Under the pieces are notes generated by a model. That model had not been told where the DNA came from. It saw only the letters and a list, made by a program, of their open reading frames with translations, and did no database searches. DNA of 64,000 nucleotides from a virus (lineage: Duplodnaviria; Heunggongvirae; Uroviricota; Caudoviricetes). The stretch's first letter is position 1; every line of letters begins with the position of its first letter. Below are positions 7,401 to 54,355 of the stretch, one piece after another. The stretch lies in IMG/VR virus record IMGVR_UViG_3300042868_003731, positions 89,967-153,966 of that record. One strand, written 5' to 3'. Position numbers and translations under genes: made by a program.

Positions 7401-7401
7401 T

Positions 7402-9633: not shown

Positions 9634-9649
9634 TTTAAGGAATTATATT

Positions 9650-10159: not shown

Positions 10160-10182
10160 CACGCAACACACAGGAGAACAAG

Positions 10183-10404: not shown

Positions 10405-10407
10405 TAT

Positions 10408-11013: not shown

Positions 11014-11077
11014 TATTCATAAAGATATGAGCACGCACAGAATTCATACAACAAAGTATGAAGACCTATGCATGTGA

Positions 11078-11085
11078 TATAAATA
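11078..11085 (+). promoter_or_regulatory. T4-type late promoter upstream of hsp20
   Basis: Exact intergenic TATAAATA. Confidence 0.75.
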
Positions 11086-11088
11086 AAT

Positions 11089-11170
11089 GCGGAGATGCCA
11101 ATCGGGTCTCCGCTTTTATAAACCGGTCAGATGACGGTTAAACACAACTCGCTTTAATAAGGAGAAAGAT
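11089..11170 (+). promoter_or_regulatory. Structured 5' leader of hsp20 (two hairpins before the RBS)
   Basis: GCGGAGA/TCTCCGC stem at 11089-11113, AACC-GTC/GAC-GGTT stem at 11121-11139, then ACAACTCGCTTTAATAAGGAGA. Confidence 0.5.
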
Positions 11171-11617: not shown

Positions 11618-11620
11618 ATG

Positions 11621-11647
11621 AAAAAGGGAGCGAAAGCTCCCTTTTTT
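11621..11647. terminator. Bidirectional rho-independent terminator
   Basis: AAAAAGGGAGC-GAAA-GCTCCCTTTTTT between the convergent hsp20 and tape-measure-like genes. Confidence 0.9.
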
Positions 11648-13514: not shown

Positions 13515-13522
13515 GTCTTGGC

Positions 13523-13690
13523 CTACTTTCTCTTTTCTTCTTCTTTCTTAATGTAGTCCACTAAAAGATCGTAGTATAGATCTCTTTCAAAAGGCATAGA
13601 ACTTTCAATATCAAACATACTGTATTTGTGGTGTTGAACCATACCAAACATCTTATTATAATATATGGACAGGTTTGTATGACTCAACAT
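13523..13690 (-). CDS. 51: Baseplate hub assembly protein gp51 (55 aa, absent from the ORF track)
   Basis: Hand translation MLSHTNLSIYYNKMFGMVQHHKYSMFDIESSMPFERDLYYDLLVDYIKKEEEKRK; TAATG overlap with the gp26 stop. Confidence 0.8.
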   Translation of the reverse strand: MLSHTNLSIYYNKMFGMVQHHKYSMFDIESSMPFERDLYYDLLVDYIKKEEEKRK

Positions 13691-14391
13691 TAGATAAAAA
13701 AAGTTTGGGTTCCTTGTATTACGAAAGTCTTATCTTCGCCTGCTCTATTTCTATACGGTATCTCGTGTCTTATCTTAGGAATTGTATCAAAGAATTCTTT
13801 AAGCTTCTTAACGGAATCTGCGTGAAGACTCTCAACAAAAGTGTCTACTTCTTTTTTCGTAAAGTCTTTAAAGTTATACACTTCTTCTTCTGATACTAAT
13901 CTATCCATGCAAGATAGCATTATTTCTAAGTTCTTTTCAGCGCTTGGTTTCTCTTGCGTTAAGAAGTCAAAGAATACATCTATGCTAGGATACTTTAAGA
14001 ATAGAGTATATGTGTCATTAAGTTTTATTCTATTCGTATGTTTATCGTCTCTTTCTACCTTAACGTTATTTAGATCCAATTCGAGCTGCACCTCGTCTTT
14101 TGTATCCGGATCTTCGATCTTAAACTTTACGATGTTATCGATCGACTTCGCTCTTATATTAATAAGAAGATACTCTAGATCAAACAACGCAAGATCTTCG
14201 ATGTCGTAATCAATTAAACAGTTATTCACGACTTGTTTCACTGAGTTTATAATCTGTGCCGGATCTTGAGTCTCTTGAGCGATGAGAAGTATCTTTTCTT
14301 CCTTTACAGTGAAGGGTCTAAACTTAACTTTCTTATCGTTCGACGGAAGTTTAAGTTCGTATATAGGTAGGGTAATCTTAGGTAGCGCCAT
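13690..14391 (-). CDS. 26: Baseplate hub subunit gp26
   Basis: MALPKITLPIYELKLPS..VKFRPFTVKEEKILL, DLEYL.INIRAKS and G.QTFF ending. Confidence 0.9.
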   Translation of the reverse strand: MALPKITLPIYELKLPSNDKKVKFRPFTVKEEKILLIAQETQDPAQIINSVKQVVNNCLIDYDIEDLALFDLEYLLINIRAKSIDNIVKFKIEDPDTKDEVQLELDLNNVKVERDDKHTNRIKLNDTYTLFLKYPSIDVFFDFLTQEKPSAEKNLEIMLSCMDRLVSEEEVYNFKDFTKKEVDTFVESLHADSVKKLKEFFDTIPKIRHEIPYRNRAGEDKTFVIQGTQTFFI

Positions 14392-37775: not shown

Positions 37776-38197
37776 CATATAGCATAGTTACAACAAGCCA
37801 AGCGCCTGACGCAAAGCCAATTGGTCTAAGCGTAACCTTAACTGACGACTGGGAGACTATTATTGAAGTTCCTAGTTTTGAAGTACCCGAATTAGTATTC
37901 GGCGGCGACACCGTCGTCGTTCCCGGGGTGGCAGAAATTATCAGTCCAATGATTATCACTAATATTGATGTTCAGACTGTAGATGTAAGCGTAAGAATAT
38001 ACAGAGCAAGTTCTAACACGTCATTCATAATAGCTAACGAACTACCAGTTCCTGCGTTTGATGTTCTTCCACTTCCATTAAACGGTCAGTTCATATACAC
38101 TGGAGACACGGTTGATGTAAAAGCATCTATAAATGGGTCAGTAAATGTAACAATATCCTACACAATAGGACAAGCGGAGCAGGATGATGTCGCTTAA
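37772..38197 (+). CDS. Small beta-rich adaptor-like protein B1 (paralogue of 56767-57234)
   Basis: P..KP.......WETIIEVPSFEVPE compared with P..GKP......FEVIAEAPDFSVPD; both have P...F.PL/IP..G. Confidence 0.6.
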   Translation: MTYSIVTTSQAPDAKPIGLSVTLTDDWETIIEVPSFEVPELVFGGDTVVVPGVAEIISPMIITNIDVQTVDVSVRIYRASSNTSFIIANELPVPAFDVLPLPLNGQFIYTGDTVDVKASINGSVNVTISYTIGQAEQDDVA

Positions 38198-41168: not shown

Positions 41169-42341
41169 GTGATAAATTTATTTCGCGATATTCCTTCTTC
41201 AAAACCAAACTTCTACTTTCTCGCGAACGGATCTAAGTTTTATAATAACGTAGAAGCATTTTCAGAAGCAAGTAAGAGAAGAGACTCTAGGATAGAGTTT
41301 GTTCTTGACTATGACGTGTATCGTAATCCGCAGGCATGGAGAGTAGAACCTCTTCTTGAATCTAAAGACTATTTCAGGAAGCACGCAAGAATCCTTGCGG
41401 AAAAGTATGATGACATTACGATTCACTACAGTGGAGGAACTGATAGTCATACAATACTCGATGCATTTATAGATGAAGGTATAAGAAATGTTAAACTTTG
41501 GCATAGAGCCGGGTTTGGTTTCGAAGATTTTAATCCAAAAATAAAACTCTTTGGACAGATTCGTGATACTCTTATGAGTAAATACAGCGAGAAGTTAAAG
41601 CAACTCAACTACACGGTAGAAGGTTTAGACAAACCGAATTATCTTGCACCAAACGACCCGGCAGAATGGAGACTTGCTCTTGAGAATTTCGTAGGTGATT
41701 ATCGTACTATGGTTAAGTTACCGGAATCTATAGGCCAATATCACTCAAGACACAAGAGAGTGAATAAGACTAAACCGCGATCTTGTATGATATGGGGATT
41801 AGAAAAACCTCGTGTAACTTTGGTAAACGGAGATTGGTTTTGGGCTACTAATTCTGGAATGTGGTGGCAATATGATACTCCATCATCTAATGACTACGAT
41901 ACAATCTTCTTTTTCTCTACTGACGACGTCCCAGAAATACAGATAAAGCTCGCGTGGCTTAAGATATCAGCGATTGAAAGTATTGTCAAGGCACGTGGAA
42001 ATATTAGTAAGAGCGAAGCAGAAAAACTTGTGAGTGAAGTTCAACACTTTTCTAGTTCTTACTATACACTTATAAATGAATCAATGGGATATAAAGCCTT
42101 GAGTCATGTATTGAATGGAAATTATTGGAGAGCGAGTCCAGATTATTCCGGATGGTTAAAACATCTTCATTTAAAAAGAGAAAAGATTGGAATTATTCGA
42201 GAAACTCAGCATTTCTTTGAAGAAGAAATATCTAGAAGAGTTGACGCAAGATACATAGATGAAGAAAATAAAACATTAAATTCGATTCCTTCTAGGTCCA
42301 TATACATAAGAAAATCCACTTTAGAGTTAAGAGATAGTTGA
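41169..42341 (+). CDS. PP-loop (adenine nucleotide alpha-hydrolase-like) protein
   Basis: HYSGGTDSHTIL PP-loop motif; GTG start; substrate unknown. Confidence 0.6.
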   Translation: MINLFRDIPSSKPNFYFLANGSKFYNNVEAFSEASKRRDSRIEFVLDYDVYRNPQAWRVEPLLESKDYFRKHARILAEKYDDITIHYSGGTDSHTILDAFIDEGIRNVKLWHRAGFGFEDFNPKIKLFGQIRDTLMSKYSEKLKQLNYTVEGLDKPNYLAPNDPAEWRLALENFVGDYRTMVKLPESIGQYHSRHKRVNKTKPRSCMIWGLEKPRVTLVNGDWFWATNSGMWWQYDTPSSNDYDTIFFFSTDDVPEIQIKLAWLKISAIESIVKARGNISKSEAEKLVSEVQHFSSSYYTLINESMGYKALSHVLNGNYWRASPDYSGWLKHLHLKREKIGIIRETQHFFEEEISRRVDARYIDEENKTLNSIPSRSIYIRKSTLELRDS

Positions 42342-42342
42342 A

Positions 42343-43674
42343 ATGATAGAAATGGTTGTTTCTTTTCTTGTTGCGACCTTCTTTGGCGTCTTGTCCGGAT
42401 TGATACCAGGAGTGTCCGTGTTTGTGACGCTGTCTCTAATGTATCCGTTTCTAATGGGAATTGACCCAGCAAACGCGTTAGCAGTATATGTAGTAGTTGC
42501 AAGCCTGAGCCAATACTTTGGATCTGTGTCAGCAACTATCTTTGCTGTCCCTGGTTCTATGACATCCATTCCTTCGTTAATCGAAGGTCACGAATTGTTT
42601 CGTCGTGGAGATGGTGATAGGGCAATAATGTATGCAGCGATAGGAAGCTTCATAGGATCTCTTCTCTCTATCATGGTGTCGTACATCTTTATTCAGTATA
42701 GTTACTATATGTTCTCTATGTTTGATACGCGCATAAAAATGCTGCTTACTTTTCTGTGTCTAATAGCATTTATAGTAGTGAGTAAGAATAAGTACTGGAT
42801 CAGTTGCGCATTTATAATCTTGGGTTTTATCTTAGCGCACGTCGGGATGGATAAAAATACAAACACCGCATTTCTTACATTTGGTAACAATTATCTGTTA
42901 AGCGGGCTTCCTACAATCAGTGTCGTCTTAGGAATATACGTAATACCGTATATCCTAGATCAACTTGAAGTAGGCTCAAGAAAGATAGTGATGAATAAGT
43001 TGCAACTTTCAGGTTATGTTGTGTCGTTTAAGAATATGTTACAACATTGGGGAGTTGTAGTTCGTGGATTCTTGATAGGTTATGTATCCGGGTTTATACC
43101 AGGAGTTACGTATCATCTTGGAACAACACTTGCGTATCTACTCGAAAAAAGAATAAAAAAGAAACAAAACAAGTATCAGGTTGGTGATATAGACTGTCTT
43201 GTTGCGGCCGAGACTGCAAACAACGCAGGTGTTTTTTCACAAATAATTCCTTTATTTCTCGTAGGTCTTCCAATTACTAGTACACAATCTTTTATATATA
43301 GTATAGTCGAGAGTAAAGGAATACATATAACAACAAACTTCTTCTATCACATGCTTCCTTATATGATGGTTGTCTATATGCTTAGCGCGATTATCGGCGT
43401 ATTCATAGCAGGAAAGTATGTAAATTGGATAAGAGTTTTTTCAAGGATAGACTTTAGATACATATATATCTTTATTATTGCGATGCTCTTTGTCGTCGCG
43501 TATATTACTGGATCTATGTATGGTCAGTCCGTGTACTATGTAGTACTTCTTATAGCTTTGATACCAATTGGTTATCTGCTCAAGAGTTACGATAGAACAC
43601 CAATAGTCTTTGCATTTCTGCTTCACGACATGCTGTACTACAGCATAATGACATTCAACGCTCTATACTTATGA
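42343..43674 (+). CDS. tctA: TctA-like tripartite tricarboxylate transporter membrane subunit
   Basis: About 12 hydrophobic segments; G..SGLIPG, YFGSV..T...VPG, EG..L...G, G.D...TFG...L..G, SGFIPG and AAETANNA...IPL..GLP. Confidence 0.8.
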   Translation: MIEMVVSFLVATFFGVLSGLIPGVSVFVTLSLMYPFLMGIDPANALAVYVVVASLSQYFGSVSATIFAVPGSMTSIPSLIEGHELFRRGDGDRAIMYAAIGSFIGSLLSIMVSYIFIQYSYYMFSMFDTRIKMLLTFLCLIAFIVVSKNKYWISCAFIILGFILAHVGMDKNTNTAFLTFGNNYLLSGLPTISVVLGIYVIPYILDQLEVGSRKIVMNKLQLSGYVVSFKNMLQHWGVVVRGFLIGYVSGFIPGVTYHLGTTLAYLLEKRIKKKQNKYQVGDIDCLVAAETANNAGVFSQIIPLFLVGLPITSTQSFIYSIVESKGIHITTNFFYHMLPYMMVVYMLSAIIGVFIAGKYVNWIRVFSRIDFRYIYIFIIAMLFVVAYITGSMYGQSVYYVVLLIALIPIGYLLKSYDRTPIVFAFLLHDMLYYSIMTFNALYL

Positions 43675-43682
43675 GGTAAAAT

Positions 43683-44510
43683 ATGATTAAATACATCACA
43701 GCGCTCTTTATGATGATTTCTACACCGCTCTACGCAAACGAATTAGTTCGCATCATAAATCCATACAATCCAACCGGAGCTGCCTTTAAACTAGGAAACT
43801 ATCTACACGAGTCAAACCCTTCTCTTTTTGGAAGTGTAGAAAAAGTAGAGTCCTGTGCCACAGCAGCAAGCATTCTTAAAACTGAGACTAACCCAACCAT
43901 AGTAATATGGCAGCCAATTGCAGAACCTTTTTCAGCAAGTGAAGAATGTAAGGAAACACTCACAAAAGATAATTTTATCACTGTTCACATCTCTTCGTAT
44001 AACTATATCTGCACAAAGAAAGATTCCGGTAAAGATCTCGAATACTTTATAAACGGAAACGCAAAGATAGGTTATGCTATTGATTTTCTATACAAGTTAT
44101 CTTTAGAAAATAATGTAAAAGCAGTACAGAGTAATGCTACGATCATTCCGTATAAGAGCGCGAATGAATATATGGCAGCTTTTGAAATAGACGAGATAGA
44201 CTTTGTCTATACGACCAAGCCAAGCGATATTATGAGCTGCGTGCTGACTACAGATCCAAACAGCACTGAAATTACACCGCTAGTTAATTACAGTGATGAC
44301 GTCTTCTCTACAGCCGGTATGAAGTTCGCATTCCTTGGAGTAAATGTTGATCTAGAAGAGATGAAGCAGGTTTTAAACGATTCTACCTCTTCAGATTCTT
44401 GGAAAGAAATGTTTAACACATATAGTCGTGAGCTTTCATTACTCGATAGAGAAGCACAGCTCGAAGCTATACAGAAAGAAGTGTCTGCCTACCAAAGTCA
44501 GGTGCAGTAA
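43683..44510 (+). CDS. TctC/Bug-like periplasmic substrate-binding protein
   Basis: Signal peptide ending LYA; VRIINPYNPTG and IPYKSANEYMAAFEIDEIDFV resemble the TctC motifs IVP..PGG and VPYKG....AL..GEVD; adjacent to tctA. Confidence 0.55.
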   Translation: MIKYITALFMMISTPLYANELVRIINPYNPTGAAFKLGNYLHESNPSLFGSVEKVESCATAASILKTETNPTIVIWQPIAEPFSASEECKETLTKDNFITVHISSYNYICTKKDSGKDLEYFINGNAKIGYAIDFLYKLSLENNVKAVQSNATIIPYKSANEYMAAFEIDEIDFVYTTKPSDIMSCVLTTDPNSTEITPLVNYSDDVFSTAGMKFAFLGVNVDLEEMKQVLNDSTSSDSWKEMFNTYSRELSLLDREAQLEAIQKEVSAYQSQVQ

Positions 44511-44520
44511 TCATATAGAA

Positions 44521-44545
44521 AAGAAGCGGGCATTGCCCGCTTCTT
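44521..44545. terminator. Strong hairpin, probable terminator
   Basis: AAGAAGCGGGC-ATT-GCCCGCTTCTT, a perfect 11-bp stem between the TctC-like gene and rmlB. Confidence 0.7.
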
Positions 44546-44568
44546 CATACAATGAAAAGGAATACATT

Positions 44569-45594
44569 ATGAAAAGAATATTAATCACTGGCGGAGCCGG
44601 TTTTATTGCCCACCACCTCGTATGTAAAGTGCTCAAAGAGACGGATTGGGAGGTAGTTACTCTAGATAGATTGGACTACAGTGGAAACTTGAATCGCCTC
44701 CACGACTCACTACAGGAGTTCGACGCCGAAACTCGTAAGAGAGTAAGCGTGGTATTTCACGACCTGAAGGCCGACATGAACCCACTCGTTCGTTCAGAAG
44801 TAGGATCCGTAGACTACATCGCTCACCTTGCAGCAGGGTCACATGTTGATCGTTCTATCGACTATCCGATGGAGTTCGTTCTTGATAATGTTGTCGGAAC
44901 GTGTAACATTCTCGAATTTGCAAGAGCGCAAAAGAGCAATCTTAAGAGGTTCATCTACTTCAGTACCGATGAAGTCTTTGGTCCTGCGCCGGATGGAATT
45001 AAGTATGGTGAAAACGATCGCTATAACTCTACGAATCCTTATAGCGCATCAAAAGCAGGCGGCGAAGAACTTGCTGTTGCGTATGAGAATACCTACGGCT
45101 TGCCGATCTATATCACTCATACTATGAACGTCTTTGGTCAGAGACAACACCCGGAGAAGTACATACCAATGTGCATCAAGAAAGCTCGTGATGGCGAGAA
45201 GATTACAATCCATAGCGATAGAACAAAGACGATCCCGGGATCACGTCACTACATCCACGCAGAAGATGTAGCAGATGCAGTTTTATTCTTACTAAATGGG
45301 AATTTTGATCTAAAGGAAGAATGGGGTGGAGCTAAGTGCCCCAAGTTTAACATCGTCGGCGCAGAAGAGATCGATAACTACGAACTTGCAAGGATCATCG
45401 CAGACGCGCAAGGTAAGGAACTCAACTACGAGTTTGTCGACTTTCACTCGAGTCGCCCAGGCCACGATCTTCGCTATGCCCTAGACGGAAACAAGATGAA
45501 GAGTCTTGGATGGGAACCAGCCACTTCAGTCCGCGAAAGAATTGCAGAAGTAGTAAAGTGGACTCTAGAGAACGAAAGATGGCTAAAGACATAA
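44569..45594 (+). CDS. rmlB: dTDP-glucose 4,6-dehydratase
   Basis: ILITGGAGFI, HLAAGSHVDRSI, STDEVFG, NPYSASKA and RPGHD.RYALD; start moved to ATG 44569 (AAGGA). Confidence 0.9.
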   Translation: MKRILITGGAGFIAHHLVCKVLKETDWEVVTLDRLDYSGNLNRLHDSLQEFDAETRKRVSVVFHDLKADMNPLVRSEVGSVDYIAHLAAGSHVDRSIDYPMEFVLDNVVGTCNILEFARAQKSNLKRFIYFSTDEVFGPAPDGIKYGENDRYNSTNPYSASKAGGEELAVAYENTYGLPIYITHTMNVFGQRQHPEKYIPMCIKKARDGEKITIHSDRTKTIPGSRHYIHAEDVADAVLFLLNGNFDLKEEWGGAKCPKFNIVGAEEIDNYELARIIADAQGKELNYEFVDFHSSRPGHDLRYALDGNKMKSLGWEPATSVRERIAEVVKWTLENERWLKT

Positions 45595-45599
45595 GTTGT

Positions 45600-45607
45600 G
45601 ATAAATA
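45600..45607 (+). promoter_or_regulatory. Late-promoter variant GATAAATA
   Basis: One mismatch to consensus; intergenic before two virion-type genes. Confidence 0.5.
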
Positions 45608-45639
45608 GATACAGCTAATAGTTCTAAAGGAGAGCGAAG

Positions 45640-45807
45640 ATGGCTGTTAAGATATCTGGAACAACCGTTATTGACGATAGCAGAAATATAACAAACATAC
45701 TCACGGCAACCTCAAACACTGCCGTGATTACTTATTTGCAGGACAGTTCAAATAGAACTCTAAAGATCCTTAATGCGGCAGGAACTGTAGTCTGGGGTTC
45801 TGTATAA
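45640..45807 (+). CDS. Small virion-type protein (55 aa, absent from the ORF track)
   Basis: AAGGAG RBS; hand translation MAVKISGTTVIDDSRNITNILTATSNTAVITYLQDSSNRTLKILNAAGTVVWGSV. The N-terminus resembles phage fibre N-termini. Confidence 0.65.
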   Translation: MAVKISGTTVIDDSRNITNILTATSNTAVITYLQDSSNRTLKILNAAGTVVWGSV

Positions 45808-45808
45808 T

Positions 45809-48433
45809 ATGGCAAGACCAAATGTCCTTACCTATAAGGGCAGTGGCATATTACAGATCATAAACGACTCTGAGTTTGAAGCGATCGCTGAAGTTGTTCT
45901 TGAAAAGTTTGCTTCTGTTGACGGGCCCGGTAACATATACAACGCACAAGGTGCAAACACCGCTTATGTAGCAATAGGTGATTTCACTGATACACGATAT
46001 CAGGGAGCTATTGGAACTGGAGACGTTACACTTCTTTCTACAACATACACTCTTTATCAGGATAGAACGAGTAACTACGGATCTGTCACGAATCCACCAT
46101 TACATTGGAACGGAACTGATATTAAGATCGCGAACAATACAGAGCTCAACGATCTTGCCGATGCTATTATACAATATATGGTTATTGGAGATGGCCCAGG
46201 TGGTTACGTGTTAACAAGCGCCGCGCCGGCTGGAGGTACTTGGGTATCCATCGGAAGCATTAACAACGTTCAAGACACAGCAAATACTACTGTAACCACG
46301 TTATTTAAAAAGATATCGGGTACTACCACTCTTACACACAGTCCTCTTAAACATGTATCTGGCGGAACCATTCAGATCATGACTCAGGCCGAAATAGAAC
46401 AGCTAGTCGAAAAAGTAAGAGAAAGAATTATAACAACACAGATAGGTTACTATGCATTTCAGCTAGCTGCGCCAACGCCAGGGACTTGGGCTGAAATGGG
46501 TACTATCCTTGACACAAGACCTACGATATCTGCGCAAGATTATGTAGGCCCGATATATACTTCTGATGTGAATTATACCGGTATTATTCCTATAAGCTAT
46601 CTTGGCGGTTCGGACGTACCGTATGACACAGATTACATAGGAACATACGACACTGATTACGTTTCTTCTGTTATTGTTGGTTATGACGGTGTTGCACCGG
46701 CGGCATACACTACCACCTTTGAAGGGCCTAGTGGTATAAACTATCTAGGTCCGGGTTTTGCAACATACGATGGAGACTATCTTGGCGGGATTGTATACGA
46801 TGGAGTTGCGCCAACGAACTATGTCGGCGATTACATCGGTCCTATTTCTTATGTCGGCGTTACACCGGCTACTTACGTAGCAGATTATGTAGGACCAGCT
46901 ACGTACGTTGGTATCACTCCTATCACGTATGTGACTGGGTTTATTGGTCCAGTCACATACGTTGGACCTGCAGAGGTTACCTATGATAGTACTCGATTCG
47001 TGACAGTTAACTATCTTGGTCCGTTGGCGGACTCTATTAACTATGCAGGAACGACTCCGGCTTCATATCTAGGACCCTCTGCGCCAGTCACATATATTGG
47101 GCCTTTGGATGGAGTTCTATATGTATCTACGGATACGGACGGTGCTCCTTATGCATCTCAATCCGGAGTCCCAAACGTAAACTATCTTGGTCCTGGCCCG
47201 GCAAACTTTACAAACTATACGTTATTTCCTCTATACTTAGGTCCTAGCGCAGAACCTTTCTATCTAGGAGACATTACAACTGTTAACTACCTTGGCCCAG
47301 GAGGTCCTGCTGCGAACTACACTTCGTTAGTTGCTAACGTCACAAACTATCTTGGCCCGGGCACGGCGAATGCTATAAATTATGTTGGGCCAGGCGCAGC
47401 GAATTCTATAAACTATCTCGGGCCAGGGCCGGGCATCACGTACGTGAGAACCAAAACATTATCATACGTTGGCCCTGGCCCGGCGAATGCTACAAACTAC
47501 CTCGGCCCTGGTGCAGCTACAAGCTACCTCGGCCCTGGCGCGGATACCAACTACTTAGGCCCAGGAAACCAAGATTATCAAGGGTCGCAAAAACTAAACT
47601 TCGTAGATTATACTTCCATACCATCAATTAACTACGTAGGTCCTGCGACTCCGGATGCCATAAACTACGAGTCAGACAACGCAATAAATTATCTTGGATC
47701 TGGTGCACCAGTTAACTATCTCGGTGCCGGGCCTGATGTTAGTTACTTGGGCCCTCTTGACGGCCCTACATATATCGGTCCAGGAACTACTCCAGACGGA
47801 GCCGGATATATTGGTATACCGGAAGTATTATATACTGCGCTCATTGCTGCAGATTATCTCGGAACAAACCCAGATGGAGCGGTTTATGATACGGTTATAG
47901 CCTATCTTGGCAACTACGCTGGATTAACTCCAGATGCTGGCAGTTATATATTATCTGTTACATACGAGAGTGAATACGCCGGTGTGACTCCCGCAAGCTA
48001 CGTTGGAGTGTTAACATACGATATAGATTACTTAGGAGTGACGGCGGCAAACTATGACAACACAGTTGCTTATCTAGGAGACTACGTTGGTATTGGACCG
48101 GTGTCGTATATAAGTGAAACTACATATCTAGGACAATTTGTAGGATTTGCTCCAGTGTTTTATGTTGGGACCCTGTCATATATTACCGATTACATAGGAG
48201 TCACAGGTGGGGTCTTCTCTAGTCCTTTACCATCCAGCTATACTAGCTCTTATGATGGTCCTGCATATACTACAACATACATTGCAGCCGTCCCGGATAC
48301 GGTAAATTATGACTCTACAGTACCAAACGATTATGCTGGAGCTGTAGACTATCAGAGTACATATGCAGGATCGATAATAAATAATAATAGCTCAGTAATC
48401 TCTACGAAAACTCTTTGGAGAAGGATTCTTTAA
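45809..48433 (+). CDS. Tyr-Gly repeat protein, probable virion fibre/appendage
   Basis: Three N-terminal modules, then about 600 aa of Y-x-G-(P/V/D) repeats (NYLGPG core). Confidence 0.65.
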   Translation: MARPNVLTYKGSGILQIINDSEFEAIAEVVLEKFASVDGPGNIYNAQGANTAYVAIGDFTDTRYQGAIGTGDVTLLSTTYTLYQDRTSNYGSVTNPPLHWNGTDIKIANNTELNDLADAIIQYMVIGDGPGGYVLTSAAPAGGTWVSIGSINNVQDTANTTVTTLFKKISGTTTLTHSPLKHVSGGTIQIMTQAEIEQLVEKVRERIITTQIGYYAFQLAAPTPGTWAEMGTILDTRPTISAQDYVGPIYTSDVNYTGIIPISYLGGSDVPYDTDYIGTYDTDYVSSVIVGYDGVAPAAYTTTFEGPSGINYLGPGFATYDGDYLGGIVYDGVAPTNYVGDYIGPISYVGVTPATYVADYVGPATYVGITPITYVTGFIGPVTYVGPAEVTYDSTRFVTVNYLGPLADSINYAGTTPASYLGPSAPVTYIGPLDGVLYVSTDTDGAPYASQSGVPNVNYLGPGPANFTNYTLFPLYLGPSAEPFYLGDITTVNYLGPGGPAANYTSLVANVTNYLGPGTANAINYVGPGAANSINYLGPGPGITYVRTKTLSYVGPGPANATNYLGPGAATSYLGPGADTNYLGPGNQDYQGSQKLNFVDYTSIPSINYVGPATPDAINYESDNAINYLGSGAPVNYLGAGPDVSYLGPLDGPTYIGPGTTPDGAGYIGIPEVLYTALIAADYLGTNPDGAVYDTVIAYLGNYAGLTPDAGSYILSVTYESEYAGVTPASYVGVLTYDIDYLGVTAANYDNTVAYLGDYVGIGPVSYISETTYLGQFVGFAPVFYVGTLSYITDYIGVTGGVFSSPLPSSYTSSYDGPAYTTTYIAAVPDTVNYDSTVPNDYAGAVDYQSTYAGSIINNNSSVISTKTLWRRIL

Positions 48434-48436
48434 ATT

Positions 48437-48928
48437 ATGGTTGAAAAAATACTAAACCCTGAATATGTAGACTTGGAAAAGACGAGAGTAAGATTTAAGA
48501 TAATACGTGAAGATGGAATCGAAAGCGTTGCTGAACTTACTGTTCCGAATAATAAAAGAAAAGGCGTGAATAAGTATTGGGATCGAATCGTTGATGAATT
48601 TGATATCGAAGAAATGCGTCAGAAAAGAAACCGCATCGAAGCGGAACAGAGAAATCATAAAAAGCACGCCGACGAAAAGAGAAGGACTCAAGAGAAAGTC
48701 ATAGAGCTTAAGACTCTTTTCAACGAAAAAACAAAAGTCCTAGAACTTCCATTTATTCGTGACGCAGGAACAGATATAAAATCTGCAATACGAAGAGCGC
48801 CAACGAAAGCTGTATTAGACTTTATTGTTACAGATATCACGAGAAAGTTTATGGAAAATCAGGGTATGGACTACAACGATTATCTAGACTACCTAGATGA
48901 TCTCGAGGAAGAAGCCGAAACAACTTGA
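48437..48928 (+). CDS. Hypothetical protein (possible assembly chaperone)
   Basis: Clean ORF coupled to the repeat protein; central coiled coil. Confidence 0.5.
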   Translation: MVEKILNPEYVDLEKTRVRFKIIREDGIESVAELTVPNNKRKGVNKYWDRIVDEFDIEEMRQKRNRIEAEQRNHKKHADEKRRTQEKVIELKTLFNEKTKVLELPFIRDAGTDIKSAIRRAPTKAVLDFIVTDITRKFMENQGMDYNDYLDYLDDLEEEAETT

Positions 48929-48942
48929 AATGAGATTGATTT

Positions 48943-49770
48943 ATGAATGATGTAGAAAAAAGTGAAAATGGTTTCATATACGTTGCTTCAAAAGAAAAAC
49001 TATTCTATGAACTCGCCATGCTGTCCGGAGAGTCTCTTCGAACAATGCATAGAAACGCTCACATAACTCTCTTTACTCACGAAGCTTGGGTTGACGATAG
49101 AGCAAGAGAGATTTTTAATAACGTGATCACCGGCATTCCGGTTCACGAGCGAGCAAAGATGTGGTGTATGGCAAGGACTCCATACGAGAATACATTCTAC
49201 AACGACGTAGACTCGCAGATCGTAAGCAGTAAGATAAAGAACGTATTCGACGAGATTAAAGACTGCGACATGTTCTTCACAGAGAGTTACTGGTATACAA
49301 CCGGTAACTATAAGTGGTCTTTCTTTGATAAGGAACAAAAGATACCAGTAAAGTATCATGGTGCGGTCTGCGGTTACAGAAAGACAGACCTAACGATAGA
49401 TTTTATGCAGACGTGGTTCGATGAATATCTAAAACAAAGAACCGAACCGTGGACATACGACTTCGCTTGGCCCGATTGGAAAATATTTGATATGTTTACT
49501 CTTTGGAGACTAACTTCCGGCAGATGGAAAGAGTTTGAACGATTTAACAACTTAAATATAAAGATAGGCCCAAAGGTGTACAACGCTACGATACACGATG
49601 GAAAGGATCTATACGATGGAAAACGTCCGATCGTATATCAGATAGATAAGGTATCCATGAGATCTAAGGATATGACACATTTTTATGAAAGACTACAGAA
49701 GGGATTGAATGATGAAAGAAGTTTGCCTAAAAAGTCAAAGACTGACGAAAATTCTATCTGGTATAACTGA
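48943..49770 (+). CDS. GT-A fold glycosyltransferase (GT8/GT64-like)
   Basis: GFIYVAS..A..S.ESLR......TLFT and AKMW.M..TPY..TFYNDVD (DxD). Confidence 0.7.
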   Translation: MNDVEKSENGFIYVASKEKLFYELAMLSGESLRTMHRNAHITLFTHEAWVDDRAREIFNNVITGIPVHERAKMWCMARTPYENTFYNDVDSQIVSSKIKNVFDEIKDCDMFFTESYWYTTGNYKWSFFDKEQKIPVKYHGAVCGYRKTDLTIDFMQTWFDEYLKQRTEPWTYDFAWPDWKIFDMFTLWRLTSGRWKEFERFNNLNIKIGPKVYNATIHDGKDLYDGKRPIVYQIDKVSMRSKDMTHFYERLQKGLNDERSLPKKSKTDENSIWYN

Positions 49771-50428
49771 AGATGTCTTTAAAGAAGAAAATATAAAAAG
49801 ACTATCTGAAGAAGCTAGACGTAAAGAAAAAAAAGATAATCTAATTACAGATTTACATTCTGTAGACGATGCATATTTTAGAAAAGCATTAAAGTACCCA
49901 TTAAAAGATTTTGCGTATCCTAGAGCTGCGTTAGGTATAGGAACCATAAGTACTGACATTGATAAAAGTAGTTTCTTTCACGAATTAGTGGCAAAAAAGT
50001 TAATGCGTCTTCAGAACACCGTTGGGTCTGCACAAAACGCGCTATGTATGTTGTATCCTGACGACGGTTACATCGGGTGGCATCATAACGGTAACGCTCC
50101 AGGATATAATGTATTGTTCTCATATAGCCAGGACGGCGATGGGCACTTTAAGTACTACGATAAAGAAAAAGACGAAGTAGTGTATATGTATGACAAGCCA
50201 GGTTGGAACGTTAAGTGCGGATACTATCCTTCAGAAGTCAAGGAACCGAATAGAGTGTACTGGCATGCAGCTTCAACTAAGAAAGCCAGATTGTCGATCG
50301 CCTTTGTTATACACAATAGAGACATGTGGGTTAATATGGTGGAGTACATTACAGATAGCGATTACGATAAGCATGCTATAGAATCTCAAGGACCACTTAA
50401 AGATCTTAAATCAAATGGATATATTTAA
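49709..50428 (+). CDS. 2OG-Fe(II)-oxygenase/cupin-like protein
   Basis: YP.DGYIGWHHN (HxN in place of HxD), YWHAA (distal His) and RLSIAF (2OG-binding Arg). Confidence 0.65.
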   Translation: MMKEVCLKSQRLTKILSGITEDVFKEENIKRLSEEARRKEKKDNLITDLHSVDDAYFRKALKYPLKDFAYPRAALGIGTISTDIDKSSFFHELVAKKLMRLQNTVGSAQNALCMLYPDDGYIGWHHNGNAPGYNVLFSYSQDGDGHFKYYDKEKDEVVYMYDKPGWNVKCGYYPSEVKEPNRVYWHAASTKKARLSIAFVIHNRDMWVNMVEYITDSDYDKHAIESQGPLKDLKSNGYI

Positions 50429-51068
50429 AAACATATCATGTTTTATGATAGTGATAGAGAACGACGAAAGGTCTGAGTACTATCACGATTATTGCAAGCC
50501 GAGTTGGGAAAGTGTAGGGATCACAGTCAATCGCTTTAACGCGATAACACCAAAGACGTTACACAGACAGAAAGACCTAAAGTTCGCAAAATACTCTACT
50601 TCTCCTAAGTATGTAGTAAGAGGATTGAAGGTTGAGATAACCGAAACAGAACGTGCATGCTTCTACAGTCATTTTCGTCTCTGGCAAGAATCAGTCTTTA
50701 CGAACAAACCTATTCTAATACTCGAACACGACTGCATATTACAAGATCCTTCAAAACTTTGGTGTAACAATCTTTACGGAATTACATTCTACGATCGCGC
50801 TGCAATGGGTAGCTATATCATTCAGCCCTGGTTCGCAAAGGATCTAATAGAGCATATGTATGGAGTAGAGATAAGTAATGGACCGTACTCTCATATAGAA
50901 AAGTTTGCCTTTCAAAATAATAGAATGAAAGAGTTAGTCAATGTTAAACATGATCTCTTTATTCCAGCTTCAGACCAGGTAATGTCAATGAAGTATGGCG
51001 GAACGATAGATCACTATTCAAACGACAAAGACGAATATAAGAAACATAATTTTGTAATGATACCATAA
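50415..51068 (+). CDS. GT25-like glycosyltransferase
   Basis: FMI.I...ERS, RFNAI and E.ACF.SH..LW........ILILEHD. Confidence 0.7.
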   Translation: MDIFKNISCFMIVIENDERSEYYHDYCKPSWESVGITVNRFNAITPKTLHRQKDLKFAKYSTSPKYVVRGLKVEITETERACFYSHFRLWQESVFTNKPILILEHDCILQDPSKLWCNNLYGITFYDRAAMGSYIIQPWFAKDLIEHMYGVEISNGPYSHIEKFAFQNNRMKELVNVKHDLFIPASDQVMSMKYGGTIDHYSNDKDEYKKHNFVMIP

Positions 51069-51078
51069 GGTTGATAGA

Positions 51079-52071
51079 ATGAATGATTATTCAATACCGC
51101 TCAATATAGACAGAGCCGTCATAGAGATCAACGGGGGCTGCAACTATACCTGTCAGATGTGTCCTCAGACGAATGCTGACGGTACGCATGGTGGACGAGG
51201 TAAGGACTGGCTCAAGAAGATGTCTCTCGAAGATTTTGAGAGAGCAGTTGCCGAGTGTGCAGAAGCAGGTCTTAATGTTGTGAACCTTGAAGGATCTGGC
51301 GAGCCGACTCTAAATCGTAATCTTCCGGAATACATTGCTATCGTAAAAAAGTACGGAGCGAAAGCTTTCATATACACAAACGGTTATAACCTTCGAGGCG
51401 ACTTCATGAAGGAATGTGTCGATGCTGGGTTAGATCTTGCCAGGTTCTCGATCATTGGCTACAATCAAGCGATGTATAGAAAGTGGATGAATCGATACGC
51501 TTTTGATACGGTTAAGCAAAACGCAATTGACATGAAGAACTACATCAAGGAAAGGAATTCTAATTGCATCGTAGCATCCTATCACCTTATACTCGATAAC
51601 GATCAGGAAGAATACGAAGTCTCTGAATACAGAAAGAACTTTATTGACGTAGTAGGATCGCACGCAGAGATATGGAAGATGCATAACTGGTCGGGAGTAT
51701 ACGATCCAACATATAAGAGAAAGGGAGAGAAGAGAACCTGTGGGCGTCCATTCTCACCCGATATCACTATACGTGCTGGTGGAAGCAACGGTACCAAGTT
51801 ATCTGTAGCACCGTGCTGTCAAGTGCTTGGAAGAGATGCAGAAGCAGATTTAGGATCGTTAGAGAATAAGTCTGTCGAAGAAGTATGGAATGGTGATAGA
51901 TATAAGTGGTTGCGACAGATGCATACCGAAAAAAGATTCGACGAGGTTTCTTTTTGCAAGGACTGTGATTTCTTGTATGAGGATAACGAAGTACTTGTGT
52001 GGAAGAACAACGACCTAGTAGACATTAATAAGATGAAAGGGACAAAGTTCGACCTTGGAGACTTTAAGTAA
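51079..52071 (+). CDS. Radical SAM enzyme with SPASM/Twitch domain
   Basis: CNYTCQMCP (CxxxCxxC), GEP.LN, TNG and C.RPF..PCC..LG.L....VEEVWNG..C..C. Confidence 0.9.
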   Translation: MNDYSIPLNIDRAVIEINGGCNYTCQMCPQTNADGTHGGRGKDWLKKMSLEDFERAVAECAEAGLNVVNLEGSGEPTLNRNLPEYIAIVKKYGAKAFIYTNGYNLRGDFMKECVDAGLDLARFSIIGYNQAMYRKWMNRYAFDTVKQNAIDMKNYIKERNSNCIVASYHLILDNDQEEYEVSEYRKNFIDVVGSHAEIWKMHNWSGVYDPTYKRKGEKRTCGRPFSPDITIRAGGSNGTKLSVAPCCQVLGRDAEADLGSLENKSVEEVWNGDRYKWLRQMHTEKRFDEVSFCKDCDFLYEDNEVLVWKNNDLVDINKMKGTKFDLGDFK

Positions 52072-52759
52072 GTCTTTCCCATTCAAATGTAATTATCTTT
52101 TTATTTGGATCCGGCTTTTTCATTCTTTGCATTACGACATCGTAGTCTTTTTTACTTGGATTCGTTAAATCATTTTCAGAACGTATCTCTTTATTGTCCA
52201 ATCTTAAGGATGCAGATCTTAAGAGTAATATATTAATGTCGTGTAGAAGTTTCTCATCGCCAAAAAACTTCAGTTGCTCAAAGAATTGACGATCTCCGTT
52301 TCTATAACCTATCCATTCCTCATCGTATCCACCGGCACTAAAGAAGTGAGTCTTACTTATTAAATAATCGTTAACAGACTCGTGCACATTCTTTCCTATG
52401 TTGAAAGAATGCGCCACAAATCTATACAGACGATTCCCTTTTAGTGTTTTTCTTTTTATCTGTTCTATAGAATATGCTGGGTCTTCTAACTTTCGATCAG
52501 AATCCAAGAGTATCACAAACTCGTTTGATGACTCTTTCATTATAAGATTTCTGCACCCGTGAGAATTAAACCCATAGTCCTTTTTGACACGATACAATTT
52601 TAGTTTTTCTGACGGTTGAACATAATTCAATATGTGATAAATATCAGAGGATCCATCGTCTACAATGACTAATTCGTCAACGTGTTCCAGATGGTGATCA
52701 ATAAAATTTACTATGTTTTCGGGATTGTTGTAATAAGTAGTCCCTAGGGAGATCTTCAT
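52064..52759 (-). CDS. GT2 family glycosyltransferase (inverted orientation)
   Basis: TTYYN, LVIVDDGS, RNL, ILLDSD (DxD) and GGYDE..GY..GD. Confidence 0.8.
   Translation of the reverse strand: MKISLGTTYYNNPENIVNFIDHHLEHVDELVIVDDGSSDIYHILNYVQPSEKLKLYRVKKDYGFNSHGCRNLIMKESSNEFVILLDSDRKLEDPAYSIEQIKRKTLKGNRLYRFVAHSFNIGKNVHESVNDYLISKTHFFSAGGYDEEWIGYRNGDRQFFEQLKFFGDEKLLHDINILLLRSASLRLDNKEIRSENDLTNPSKKDYDVVMQRMKKPDPNKKIITFEWERLT
52636..52643 (+). promoter_or_regulatory. Late-promoter variant inside GT2, oriented towards the 2OG oxygenase
   Basis: GATAAATA, 115 nt before ATG 52758. Confidence 0.35.
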
Positions 52760-53357
52760 GGATAACTTTTCTAAATATATTGCAAGCGGTAAACTTACGC
52801 GAAACGAAGTAAGAAAACTGTCAAAGGACGCAAATATTTATAAAGAAGATCGCTTTAATGCACAGCTTTCCAGTTCTGGCAAGGGTAGACTAGATACAAG
52901 TATTCGCAATTCTACGATCTTCTTTCCAAAAGCCGATAAGTATCCTAACACATTTAGCATACTTCAATCCGCGATAATAAGCGAGTACTCTTCGATATGC
53001 TCTTACATAGACTTAACAAATATTGCTGAGATACAGTATGCAAGATACGAAAAAGGTAACTTCTTTAAAAAACACAAAGACACCTTGTATGATACTAACA
53101 TAAAAAGAATTCTCACGTGCTCGATTAATCTATCAGAAGAAAATGATTATGGTGGTGGTGAGTTAGTCGTGTTTGATAACAATAATAACGAAATAGCAAA
53201 GCTTTCAAAAGAAATCGGAAGCTTCATAATATTTCCAGCCGTGTTTTACCATGAAGCTAGGATCGTAGAATCTGGAACACGCGAAGCAATCGTGACTTGG
53301 ATACACGAAAGCGACGCAGTTTTAAATAAGTTCAAAAAAGAAATGAACTTGGAATGA
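52758..53357 (+). CDS. 2OG-Fe(II) oxygenase, prolyl-4-hydroxylase-like
   Basis: Q.ARY..G.FF..HKD (HxD), R.L...INL...DY.GGEL, FP...HE.R.V..G.R....W; AGGGAG RBS. Confidence 0.88.
   Translation: MDNFSKYIASGKLTRNEVRKLSKDANIYKEDRFNAQLSSSGKGRLDTSIRNSTIFFPKADKYPNTFSILQSAIISEYSSICSYIDLTNIAEIQYARYEKGNFFKKHKDTLYDTNIKRILTCSINLSEENDYGGGELVVFDNNNNEIAKLSKEIGSFIIFPAVFYHEARIVESGTREAIVTWIHESDAVLNKFKKEMNLE
52835..52842 (-). promoter_or_regulatory. Late promoter for the inverted GT2, embedded in the oxygenase ORF
   Basis: TATTTATA on + equals exact TATAAATA on -, 76 nt upstream of the GT2 start. Confidence 0.6.
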
Positions 53358-53367
53358 GTAGATAGAA

Positions 53368-54039
53368 TTGATATTTGAAAAGAACGACCAGAGCGTATGC
53401 TTTGTGCATATACCCAGAAATGGTGGGCGACACTTTATCAGTCTACTCAAGAAGAATTCTTACATACAAAACAAAAAGTGTAAAGAAATTTTTTATACTC
53501 ACTTTTATAAAGATAGTGAGTACATGCATATAACATACGAAGAACTCAAAGATATCCACGGAGAATTAAAAAACTCTAAAAAGATCATCATATTTAGAAA
53601 TCCTCTAGATCGTTTCTTATCTACAGTTAATTCTGAGTGGTCAATGAAATTGTTTTTTGGTGGGTATGAAAATTTTCATCTAATGAACGACCCTATATAC
53701 TTTAAGTATGTTATGAAAGAAAAACCGTATTCGTTAAGAACTAAGGGAAAATACTTTATTTTTAAAGGTCTTACCAATATGTTTAACAATTGGTTCAAAC
53801 CGCAAGTAGATTTTTTTAATGAAGACTTTTACGTTTGGAAATTTGAAAACGGGTTCAACGACGAGTTCGTAGAGTTTCTAACAAAAGATGTCGGTTTGGA
53901 TATAAATATAAACGTAAAAGACATATACGATAGAGCTTTTTACGATGATAAGATAAAAGATTTTTCATTATCTGAAGAGCTCAAAGAAAACGTCCTGAAC
54001 TTTTATAAAAAAGACTATGAGTTCTGGAAACAACTTTAA
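53368..54039 (+). CDS. Sulfotransferase-family protein
   Basis: FVHIPRNGG (5'-PSB-like) and IFRNPLDRFLS (3'-PB); TTG start is uncertain. Confidence 0.7.
   Translation: MIFEKNDQSVCFVHIPRNGGRHFISLLKKNSYIQNKKCKEIFYTHFYKDSEYMHITYEELKDIHGELKNSKKIIIFRNPLDRFLSTVNSEWSMKLFFGGYENFHLMNDPIYFKYVMKEKPYSLRTKGKYFIFKGLTNMFNNWFKPQVDFFNEDFYVWKFENGFNDEFVEFLTKDVGLDININVKDIYDRAFYDDKIKDFSLSEELKENVLNFYKKDYEFWKQL
53901..53908 (+). promoter_or_regulatory. Possible late promoter
   Basis: Exact TATAAATA about 150 nt upstream of ATG 54056, but in AT-rich coding sequence. Confidence 0.35.
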
Positions 54040-54055
54040 TATGAGGAGAGTGAAG

Positions 54056-54355
54056 ATGAAAGGTGACTACAAACTTATTTTTTTACAAAATGATAAGACT
54101 TATATAGCAGAAGTAAAATCTGAGACCAGCAAGACGATAGAACTAATCAATCCTATGTCTGTTGAATACAAGTTTAATGCAGAAAGCATGCCAGTTTTTA
54201 GATACGTGCCTTGGCAGATTCTGTCTGCAGAAGCAATCGTTGAACTTAATAAAAGTAGCATTGTTATGATGACAAAGCCAAAGGTAGAAATGCTGGACGT
54301 CTATCAGAGAATATGCATATCATTCATACCAGTCGAGCCAGACGAAGAAGACTAA
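54056..54355 (+). CDS. Small Sm-like-fold hypothetical phage protein
   Basis: GAGGAG RBS before ATG 54056; L.....IAEV......L.NP...PW...S......I.K..I pattern. Confidence 0.55.
   Translation: MKGDYKLIFLQNDKTYIAEVKSETSKTIELINPMSVEYKFNAESMPVFRYVPWQILSAEAIVELNKSSIVMMTKPKVEMLDVYQRICISFIPVEPDEED

Follow-up and report, generated by a model that had tools for sequence, protein, structure and literature searches.

A dense group of sugar- and protein-modifying genes inside the tail-fibre region of a marine phage raises the question of whether such genes form one system and which molecule that system decorates. The group lies at positions 41169–54039 of a 64,000-nucleotide stretch (the window) of IMG/VR record IMGVR_UViG_3300042868_003731, a single virus record of 217,966 bp rated 100% complete. 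A first-pass annotation had read the whole span as one late-expressed island that builds and tailors a glycan on two flanking collagen-like fibres or on a Tyr-Gly protein. The RmlB-like, GT8-like, GT25 and GT2 glycosyltransferase (GT), radical SAM (S-adenosylmethionine), sulfotransferase and PP-loop genes that it named are all present, and its list left out two further genes of the span, one for a TctA permease and one for a TctC-like protein that is secreted. The notion of one coherent island did not survive, since on comparison with related loci the 12.9-kb span is not one system but at least three independently inherited units. The span is best described on the same grounds as a mosaic in the tail-fibre region, in which a conserved core (45809–54355), hereafter the cassette, is self-contained and horizontally mobile.

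The cassette joins the gene of a protein of Tyr/Gly/Thr/Pro repeats (the YG protein) to the genes of several soluble enzymes, and we give an even chance to the reading that these enzymes hydroxylate and glycosylate the YG fibre protein in the cytoplasm; gene families, synteny, mobility and the solubility of the enzymes are shown, and the acceptor, the chemistry (acceptor residue and sugars) and the location of the YG protein in the virion are what we infer. The YG protein is taken as the target because of the linkage of its gene, a YG-family gene lying directly upstream in 15 of the 15 lineages that have upstream DNA. Virion decoration stood as the best reading for the cassette core, with the Tyr-Gly protein favoured as its object and the collagen fibres not favoured.

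Relatives of the cassette were sought with its GT8-fold transferase (GT-A), by which 17 IMG/VR loci were fetched, and four loci (L040–L043) were added later. A fixed gene order was found in 13 of the 17 fetched loci (11 distinct lineages) and runs YG, (GT25 and methyltransferase), 163-aa protein, GT-A, double-stranded β-helix (DSBH) protein, X1 (259 aa), radical SAM enzyme, (methyltransferase), inverted GT2 and 2-oxoglutarate (2OG) oxygenase. The general order YG, 163-aa gene, GT-A, DSBH, (GT25), radical SAM, (methyltransferase), inverted GT2 and 2OG oxygenase recurs in L008–L020, L026 and L040–L043. Beyond the window the cassette was found in at least 15 lineages, two siphovirus-like contigs and the GenBank phage C48C1 among them, and it always lies among distal-tail or fibre genes and ahead of neck or terminase genes, and what follows it downstream is either fibre genes or the neck genes gp13/14/15 with the terminase. 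The PP-loop, TctA, TctC-like, dehydratase and sulfotransferase genes of the window are absent from the cassette in the 13 fixed-order loci.

Mobility of the cassette is seen in two carriers, L040 and L043, which are not T4-like and possess a T5-type small terminase, HK97-type portal and capsid, and BppL_N together with the whole cassette. L043 has the exact order of the window, and its radical SAM, GT2 and GT25 proteins are 81%, 65% and 56% identical to those of the window, respectively. The enzymes of L040 and L043 are closer to those of the window than are the enzymes of most T4-like carriers, and this high identity indicates a recent transfer between phage families. Phage C48C1, which is the only GenBank phage where homologues of the GT-A, DSBH and radical SAM proteins were found, encodes a 3348-aa protein with the YG N-terminal domain (hhalign 98.2%) after tail fibre and tail assembly chaperone genes, followed by a small open reading frame (ORF), GT-A and the DSBH protein. 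A reduced version (positions 7600–10700 of L021–L024) consists of a 418-aa protein, a 163-aa-like gene and the DSBH and GT-A genes in swapped order, without YG repeats, radical SAM, GT2 or 2OG oxygenase. A search of the island DNA against GenBank phages for near-identity gave no match.

The YG protein itself (45809–48433, plus strand, 874 aa), the proposed substrate, is by its sequence a probable fibre. Its N-terminal 240 aa are conserved and make up two similar helix-plus-sheet modules (model pLDDT 84), while the repeat region comprises about 600 aa of degenerate Y-x-G(-P) repeats with 53 YxG. The repeats of the window resemble x-N-Y-L-G-P-G-x, and several relatives repeat the hexapeptide Y-x-G-P-x-T strictly; the region has no Cys and almost no Lys, Tyr makes up 7–17%, and Gly, Thr and Pro are abundant. 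The C-terminal TLWRRI is conserved (window, L040, L042, L043) and also occurs in siphovirus-like carriers. YG proteins vary from 395 to 3348 aa in length and keep the N-terminal domain (32–57% identity), so that conserved ends with a variable repeat array among distal-tail genes agree with what would be expected of a fibre. Neither a signal peptide nor a transmembrane segment was found in the YG protein, its tblastn search against GenBank phages gave no match, and a narrower scan of IMG/VR with the YG alignment returned mostly contigs already known as carriers. For the N-terminal domain the wide VIA-align search gave a best Z of 5.6 (MACPF-associated domains) and the comparison with T4 gp11 a Z of 4.1 over 45 residues, both too weak to use.

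Two small proteins accompany the YG protein and its enzymes. Between the YG and GT-A genes lies the gene of a small charged protein of 163 aa (48437–48928, plus strand), which has no family match, is present in all cassette loci at 27–54% identity and is possibly a chaperone or adaptor. The probable right end of the cassette is the gene of a 112-aa protein (54017–54355, plus strand); in the siphovirus-like L040 a homologue with 45% identity comes after the oxygenase gene.

Among the enzymes GT-A (48943–49770, plus strand) is a retaining glycosyltransferase of the GT8 (glycogenin-like) fold, predicted from an invariant DxD and an AF2 model (pLDDT 89, pTM 0.89); D88-x-D90 is invariant and H139 nearly invariant in 28 sequences. 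Foldseek ranks 1–39 of this model are all glycogenin (E 6e-11 to 1.5e-8), followed by UGGT, LgtC (3e-8) and the Skp1 alpha-GalT, and a structural Atlas lead showed PF03407 in 30–65% and PF01501 in 22% of members. Searches with Pfam (PF01501), NCBIfam and PHROG gave no match and a profile search against PDB sequences found nothing; the protein is accordingly filed, on its model, as "GT8-fold" and not as a GT8 member. Two family-invariant word patterns retrieved no relative from 185,579 prokaryote genomes, and the family appears from its sequences to be restricted to phages. The nearest solved folds are protein-directed transferases (glycogenin, which glucosylates Tyr-O; UGGT; and the Skp1 alpha-GalT, which acts on a hydroxyproline glycan), which supports decoration of a protein.

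Always adjacent to the GT-A gene is the gene of the 2OG-oxygenase-like DSBH protein (49709–50428, plus strand), recognised by fold only through Atlas matches to 2OG oxygenases (TM score 0.47–0.49). Its invariant residues are H125-x-N127, H186 and R194-x-S, with Asn in place of the carboxylate, so the HxD/E...H facial triad is absent; a putative mode of action like that of the two-His AspH type could be considered from these residues. Of the two 2OG oxygenases claimed for the island, then, one is a clear member of the prolyl 4-hydroxylase (P4H)/PKHD type, while the second is assigned by its DSBH fold and does not have the carboxylate ligand. An Atlas row linking the DSBH protein to the tail-assembly-chaperone family PF16778 was dropped, as no PF16778 match above cut-off exists in the genome. 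Complex prediction for GT-A with the DSBH protein, run without controls, scored 0.00, which speaks neither for nor against binding.

The clear oxygenase (52758–53357, plus strand; PF13640, 4.9e-16, 59.9 bits) has its HKD motif at residue 106, with a further His downstream in an "FYHEA" segment, and thus the complete triad; its match in the PDB is a PKHD-type hydroxylase (2e-7), and PHROG_61 is matched at 1e-22. The GT25 glycosyltransferase (50415–51068, plus strand) matches Pfam PF01755 at 3.8e-14 (53.5 bits against a cut-off of 24, covering profile positions 5–101 of 199) and is only weakly similar to solved GT25 proteins (E 0.33). In five lineages its gene stands directly after the YG gene, and the position found in the window is shared by L043. 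As a separate observation, GT25 occupies in the window phage the X1 slot between the DSBH and radical SAM genes, and an X1 homologue (42% identity) lies with a second, distant radical SAM gene outside the window at G000:C1:49628-50844 (minus strand). The third transferase is a soluble GT2 (52064–52759, minus strand; PF10111 33.3 bits against 27.3, PF00535 29.9 against 23.3), which has a DSD motif at 86–88 and no transmembrane segment and is inverted in every lineage.

The radical SAM/SPASM enzyme (51079–52071, plus strand; PF04055 61 bits, PF13186 36 bits) has the CxxxCxxC cysteines 21/25/28, C-terminal cysteines 221/246/247/293/296 and one C-terminal auxiliary-cluster motif. Its best solved relative is BtrN, and no RRE (the recognition element of ribosomally synthesised and post-translationally modified peptides, RiPPs) or PqqD-like domain was found, the core starting at residue 21 and leaving no room for it. 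Homologues in cells come mostly from SAR11 single-cell genomes and also from other metagenome-assembled genomes (45–58% identity, L045–L064), and the loci around them are without YG, GT-A and DSBH genes. For example, in L053 (Pelagibacterales SAG-MED47, 2554–14006) the gene is placed inside a nucleotide-sugar/polysaccharide cluster, which also includes a GT2-cytidylyltransferase, a hexapeptide acyltransferase, a 4,6-dehydratase-type short-chain dehydrogenase/reductase (SDR), a nucleotidyltransferase, a second SDR and a GT2. Because of the BtrN relative, the missing RRE and the cellular nucleoside diphosphate (NDP)-sugar clusters, the enzyme is probably a nucleotide-sugar tailoring enzyme, and the phage may produce the same unusual sugar as its host. 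Such a role would also explain the 71–81% identity of the enzyme among phages beside fast-evolving repeats; a RiPP-type maturase is not indicated, given no RRE and this high identity although the repeats diverge. Triceptide-like cross-linking of Tyr was considered and dropped owing to the lack of an RRE, the Gly at the third place of Y-x-G and the homologues in sugar clusters.

No cassette enzyme has a transmembrane segment and none of the lipid-carrier machinery (flippase, polymerase, ligase or Gtr-type partner) accompanies the cassette enzymes, so that direct cytoplasmic transfer to a soluble acceptor fits. The enzymes do lie in the late tail-fibre region, as their original placement inside the structural region implied. 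DNA glycosylation was dropped as a function in view of the late structural context of the cassette and the GT-A folds.

Put together, the cassette would encode a substrate, the YG protein, along with soluble enzymes by which this protein is modified in the cytoplasm during late infection. The P4H-type oxygenase and the atypical DSBH protein would hydroxylate repeat residues, most likely the Pro in Y-x-G-P, and then the glycogenin-like GT8-fold transferase, GT25 and GT2 would build a short O-glycan on the hydroxylated residues or directly on Tyr/Thr, with an unusual sugar donor supplied by the radical SAM enzyme. In the lineage of the window only, a 4,6-dehydratase would provide a 6-deoxyhexose intermediate and a sulfotransferase would sulfate the glycan, methyltransferases taking the tailoring role in other lineages; the decorated YG protein would finally be built into the virion as a fibre. 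A fuller version, which is possible but rather doubtful, makes the YG protein a mucin- or extensin-like fibre, hydroxylated and O-glycosylated on Tyr/hydroxyproline with the help of the phage-only glycogenin-like transferase, that carries an unusual host-type sugar through the radical SAM enzyme and mimics or binds host surface glycans.

Several known systems resemble parts of this scheme. The glycosylation of hydroxyproline in protist Skp1, a cytoplasmic process (P4H1, Gnt1, PgtA, AgtA/Gat1), likewise combines a P4H-type oxygenase with GT2-type and GT8-type transferases, GT-A has the Skp1 alpha-GalT (6mw5) and glycogenin among its best fold matches, and Tyr and Gly-Pro are abundant in the YG repeats; unlike in Skp1 and glycogenin, the match is at the fold level only (TM score ~0.5, 11–14% identity) and the substrate is a long repeat array and not a single site. 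Virion glycosylation in mycobacteriophages reportedly concerns capsid and tail-tube subunits and one or two GTs. The likeness to this system (Freeman et al. 2023, Cell Host Microbe, cited in PMC12801897) lies in soluble GTs among structural genes and in the proposed cytoplasmic glycosylation of virion proteins. Unlike the mycobacteriophages, the window has a dedicated repeat protein, GTs of three families, a pair of DSBH proteins, a radical SAM enzyme and enzymes for tailoring, and its set moves as one cassette between phage families.

Several observations weigh against decoration of the YG protein. Its N-terminal domain has no recognisable fold, Foldseek against the PDB giving nothing at E ≤ 0.001, and one would not expect a virion anchor to be shared, as this domain is, between carriers of myovirus and siphovirus type. 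The DSBH protein, lacking the usual carboxylate ligand, may be no oxygenase. In C48C1 the radical SAM part is located 50 kb from the YG/GT-A/DSBH part, and the 418-aa protein of the reduced version is co-linear with the YG N-terminal domain but reaches just 1.2% with a single sequence and 8.9% profile-profile in hhalign. Furthermore, the combination of GT2, GT25 and GT8 is also classically that of the Neisseria/Haemophilus lipooligosaccharide (LOS) loci, GT8s and radical SAM cassettes in the same region of pelagimyophages have been read as modifiers of the host O-chain (PMC7029224), and a fibre gene could also be co-inherited with enzymes that alter its receptor.

The last of these points lead to the serious rival, namely that the enzymes remodel a host surface glycan (lipopolysaccharide (LPS)/LOS or another envelope glycan) which the YG fibre recognises, hence their co-inheritance; such remodelling would block superinfection or stop progeny from sticking to debris. 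We regard it as unlikely on balance. GT8, GT25 and GT2 are LOS-extending families, the fold matches of GT-A include the LgtC structure, a GtrB-like PHROG is weakly matched by GT2 (4e-5), and the radical SAM family occurs in cellular surface-polysaccharide clusters. O-chain modification has been published for the pelagimyophage GT8s (PMC7029224) and proposed for cyanophages (PMC12801897), and the pairing of a receptor-binding protein with a receptor modifier would account for the synteny. Against this, GT-A is without a bacterial relative in the 185,579 genomes, which is odd for a borrowed LPS gene; a membrane-linked component is missing and GT2 has no transmembrane segment; the genes are situated in late structural operons, where they tightly overlap with those for YG and the 163-aa protein; and this reading leaves the ever-present 163-aa and DSBH proteins without a role. 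The lgt loci of Neisseria/Haemophilus (GT2 LgtA/D, GT25 LgtB/E, GT8 LgtC) share with the cassette the same three families of soluble or peripheral enzymes, but have no repeat-protein partner, DSBH proteins or radical SAM enzyme, and the window GT-A is absent from prokaryote genomes.

The window comes from an uncultured T4-like marine myovirus, whose T4-type baseplate genes give gp5-, gp6-, gp7- and gp8-like PHROG matches; its gp6 is nearest to that of the Sinorhizobium phages phiM12 and phiN3 (40% identity). The span occupies the place of the "host recognition cluster" known from pelagimyophages and cyanomyoviruses (PMC7029224): it is preceded by a giant baseplate-associated protein of 1759 aa, whose homologues in related loci carry DUF4815, and is flanked by two paralogous fibre cassettes, each composed of a β-helix protein, an adaptor and a collagen fibre. 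As in the published cluster, which follows the giant DUF4815/VrlC gene, GT8s and a radical SAM enzyme stand among fibre genes; that study reads the GT8 and radical SAM genes as unrelated to fibres and has neither the fixed YG linkage nor the transfer to siphovirus-like phages (PMC7029224).

The two collagen-like fibres that border the span were the first candidates for the acceptor, the proposal being that Thr of their G-T-Q triplets is O-glycosylated and the glycan hydroxylated and sulfated, as in BclA or Mimivirus collagen. Fibre 1 (38184–41156, plus strand, 990 aa) and fibre 2 (57240–63626, plus strand, 2128 aa) both end in an S74-type intramolecular chaperone domain, and they are neighbours of the cassette only. 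Fibre 1 has 567 aa in Gly-X-Y (GXY) runs with 32 GTQ triplets and Gln at Y in 131 of 189 triplets (69%); the values for fibre 2 are 1251 aa, 228 GTQ triplets and Gln at Y in 393 of 417 triplets (94%). The 1818 residues of GXY runs in both fibres include 303 Thr, 17 Pro, 0 Lys and 31 Asp+Glu, which confirms the Pro-poor, G-T-Q-rich description given before. This G-x-Q collagen, with its nearly Pro-free and Lys-free helices, is unusual in its own right.

Such a target is now improbable in our view, the comparison of loci giving no signal for it. In its favour there are the 303 Thr of the triple-helix repeats, the position of the island between both fibres, the presence of a 4,6-dehydratase, the same layout in the close relative L026, and the related phages in which collagen fibres clearly go together with genes of hydroxylases and GTs. 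The enzymes, however, track YG in 15 of 15 lineages, including phages with no collagen within 10 kb. Outside the window collagen-like repeats within this distance of the cassette occur only in L026 and in L016/L018, the latter being (GNP)n with own oxygenases, and the cassette is also found in phages whose nearby fibres are without GXY runs. In addition, the Lys-free helices offer no acceptor to chemistry of the GT25/lysyl hydroxylase (LH) type, Thr stands at X and not at Y, RmlA, RmlC and RmlD are outside the island with RmlC missing from the genome, and the gene directly after fibre 1 belongs to a transporter cassette. The likeness to the BclA/rml system of Bacillus anthracis, which also unites a Pro-poor collagen-like fibre with a nearby 4,6-dehydratase gene, breaks down at the same points: Thr of BclA is at the Y position, the complete rmlACBD is present there whereas the window island has the dehydratase only, and the window enzymes track another protein. 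BclA-like collagen chemistry is thereby not upheld for the window, with Thr at X and no Lys for the GT25/LH type.

Comparison with other phages gives the general idea of decorated repeat fibres a firmer ground. PHROG_61 is matched by both the window GT25 (profile positions 25–106) and the oxygenase (480–629), and this double match pointed to fusion proteins. Synechococcus phage S-8S53 (L039, OQ504982.1, 1–5686) has a (GQK)n collagen tail fibre that carries Lys at Y and ends with an S74 domain. After it come a 128-aa ORF, a pair of P4H-like oxygenases and a 621-aa protein in which GT25, PLOD-GT and lysyl hydroxylase are fused (Pfam); the solved relatives of this fusion are LH3 (1e-34), Mimivirus R699 (5e-34), COLGALT1 (1.5e-20) and the LH domain of Mimivirus L230 (3e-9). 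S-8S53 thus appears by homology to have, next to the likely substrate, all parts of a hydroxylysine-Gal-Glc system of the animal/Mimivirus type, an indication that phages possess animal-type glycosylation of collagen. Lys at Y, an LH oxygenase and PLOD-GT are all found in S-8S53 and none of them in the window, whose GXY runs have no Lys and whose proteins matched neither PLOD-GT nor LH. Another example is L016/L018 (3612–7023), where a 621-aa Gly-rich (GNP)n protein with Pro at Y, a small ORF and two P4H-like 2OG oxygenases lie just upstream of the YG cassette. On these grounds the decoration of repeat fibres by marine phages is, as a general idea, a proposal with good comparative support.

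In the established systems of LH3/PLOD3 with COLGALT1 (GT25) and of Mimivirus L230 with R699, 2OG hydroxylation is followed by addition of a disaccharide by GT25 and a second GT-A (PMC12003778, PMC9546862, PMC12279948). Unlike these, the window collagens and the YG protein are essentially Lys-free, the GT25 is weakly related to the solved enzymes, and the oxygenase is of the P4H/PKHD and not of the LH type.

Least probable of all is that the YG protein is no virion part and serves as a modified repeat protein or peptide product, for example a polymer with an adhesive or matrix role, or else a RiPP-like product with the N-terminal domain as "leader": the N-terminal domain and TLWRRI are conserved across unrelated virion types as if recognised by enzymes and not by the baseplate, a Nif11-like precursor cluster is among the Atlas structural neighbours of the DSBH protein and a radical SAM/SPASM enzyme is present, but the latter has no RRE and its cellular homologues are in sugar clusters, the YG protein has no signal peptide or transmembrane segment, and the cassette has no protease or exporter and is always positioned inside tail/fibre modules.

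Decoration of the YG protein remains the reading within which the accessory genes of the window are to be placed. The NDP-hexose 4,6-dehydratase, an RmlB-like SDR (44569–45594, plus strand; Pfam GDP_Man_Dehyd 4.5e-50), has its longest ORF at 44428–45594, where the GTG start at 44428 overlaps the TctC-like gene; ATG 44569 is probably the true start, because the Rossmann motif begins directly after it. The protein carries TDE and YSASK (YxxxK) motifs and its best solved relatives are all dTDP-glucose 4,6-dehydratases (1.8e-52), but against TIGR01181 it scores 256.6 bits, below the cut-off of 365. A complete RmlABCD pathway is not present: RmlA, RmlC and RmlD are not in the island, RmlC was not found anywhere in the genome, the only NTP_transferase of the genome is in another operon, and two other SDR genes are far away. 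Among cassette-bearing loci the dehydratase occurs elsewhere only in the close relative L026.

The carbohydrate-type, Sulfotransfer_2-like sulfotransferase (53368–54039, plus strand) matches PHROG 3347 over its full length (1.3e-15), its Pfam score of 20.6 bits falls just under the 22-bit cut-off, and its segments HIPRNGG and RNPLDRFLS resemble by eye the 5'-PSB and 3'-PB motifs that bind 3'-phosphoadenosine 5'-phosphosulfate (PAPS). Its gene is inserted between the oxygenase gene and the 112-aa gene and is absent from all other cassette loci; no kinase for adenosine 5'-phosphosulfate (APS kinase) was found in the phage. Sulfation of Tyr was dropped, as the motifs and the PHROG family of the enzyme are of the carbohydrate type. 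By their distribution the dehydratase and the sulfotransferase are additions specific to the lineage of the window, and together with the methyltransferases of other lineages they look like lineage-specific glycan tailoring. Bacterial operons predicted to hydroxylate and sulfate collagen-like or tail-collar proteins were described by Iyer et al. 2010 (PMC2938197): genes of dioxygenases and sulfotransferases stand there together with that of a low-complexity repeat protein, the proposed substrate. Unlike the cassette, they have dioxygenases of the beta-hydroxylase/PhyH type and PAPS synthetase, without GTs or a YG-type protein.

The left part of the span is a different unit. It begins with a PP-loop ATP-pyrophosphatase (41169–42341, plus strand), AsnB-like without the glutaminase domain, with an SGGTDS motif at residue 88 and Atlas structure matches to Asn_synthase (TM score 0.53–0.56), and continues with a TctA-family permease of the tripartite tricarboxylate transporter (42343–43674, plus strand; Pfam PF01970 1.5e-69), which has 10 transmembrane-like windows and is the sole membrane protein in the span. 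Next comes the secreted TctC-like protein of 275 aa with an N-terminal signal-like segment (43683–44510, plus strand), for which Pfam including PF03401 gave no match and which in relatives always follows TctA (29–80% identity); no TctB-like ORF was noted beside these two genes. Among GenBank phages no true TctA homologue was found, the six weak matches looking like bacterial DNA, and tblastn of the PP-loop protein gave no match.

PP-loop homologues adjoin TctA and the TctC-like gene in three lineages. In L026/L027 (80% identity) the layout is as in the window, in L028/L029 (33%) the genes come after an S74 fibre without collagen repeats, and in L030/L031 (37%) the trio is by itself, on the opposite strand and surrounded by small ORFs of early type; it may be added that this lone trio lies near NAD-salvage genes. 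Since the trio is constant and occurs also in a non-structural context, the PP-loop gene is a separate unit and the glycan-tailoring role once given to it is not retained. The trio may be described, from its gene content, as a mobile uptake-plus-adenylation cassette outside the glycosylation system.

As to expression, late-promoter-like ATAAATA motifs had been claimed for the span and were found near the listed genes at 45601, 52637, 52841 (minus strand) and 53902, the first of them (45601–45607, plus strand) being in the 214-nt gap before the YG gene. The window contains 20 such motifs on the plus strand and 3 on the minus strand, with 13.9 expected per strand, and the full TATAAATA is found 9 times on the plus strand against 3.7 expected; the strand bias is real and the enrichment over composition is modest. 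The inverted GT2 gene has its own minus-strand TATAAATA upstream, at 52842. Scanning for sigma-70 promoters and terminators found no enrichment.

As far as found, the cassette and its linkage to the YG repeat protein have no earlier description in the literature, and the self-decoration proposed here would be of a new kind in marine phages. Where GTs and radical SAM genes turn up in the tail-fibre region of an abundant marine myovirus, the routine at present is to list them as "LPS" auxiliary metabolic genes. The splitting of the island also corrects the annotation of the PP-loop, TctA and TctC-like genes. If the favoured reading is true, host recognition by ocean phages would involve glycoprotein fibres, the GT-A family would represent a new phage-only branch of glycogenin-like enzymes with possible Tyr- or hydroxyproline-linked protein glycosylation, and the cassette would offer a small and portable set of tools with which to make glycosylated repeat proteins.

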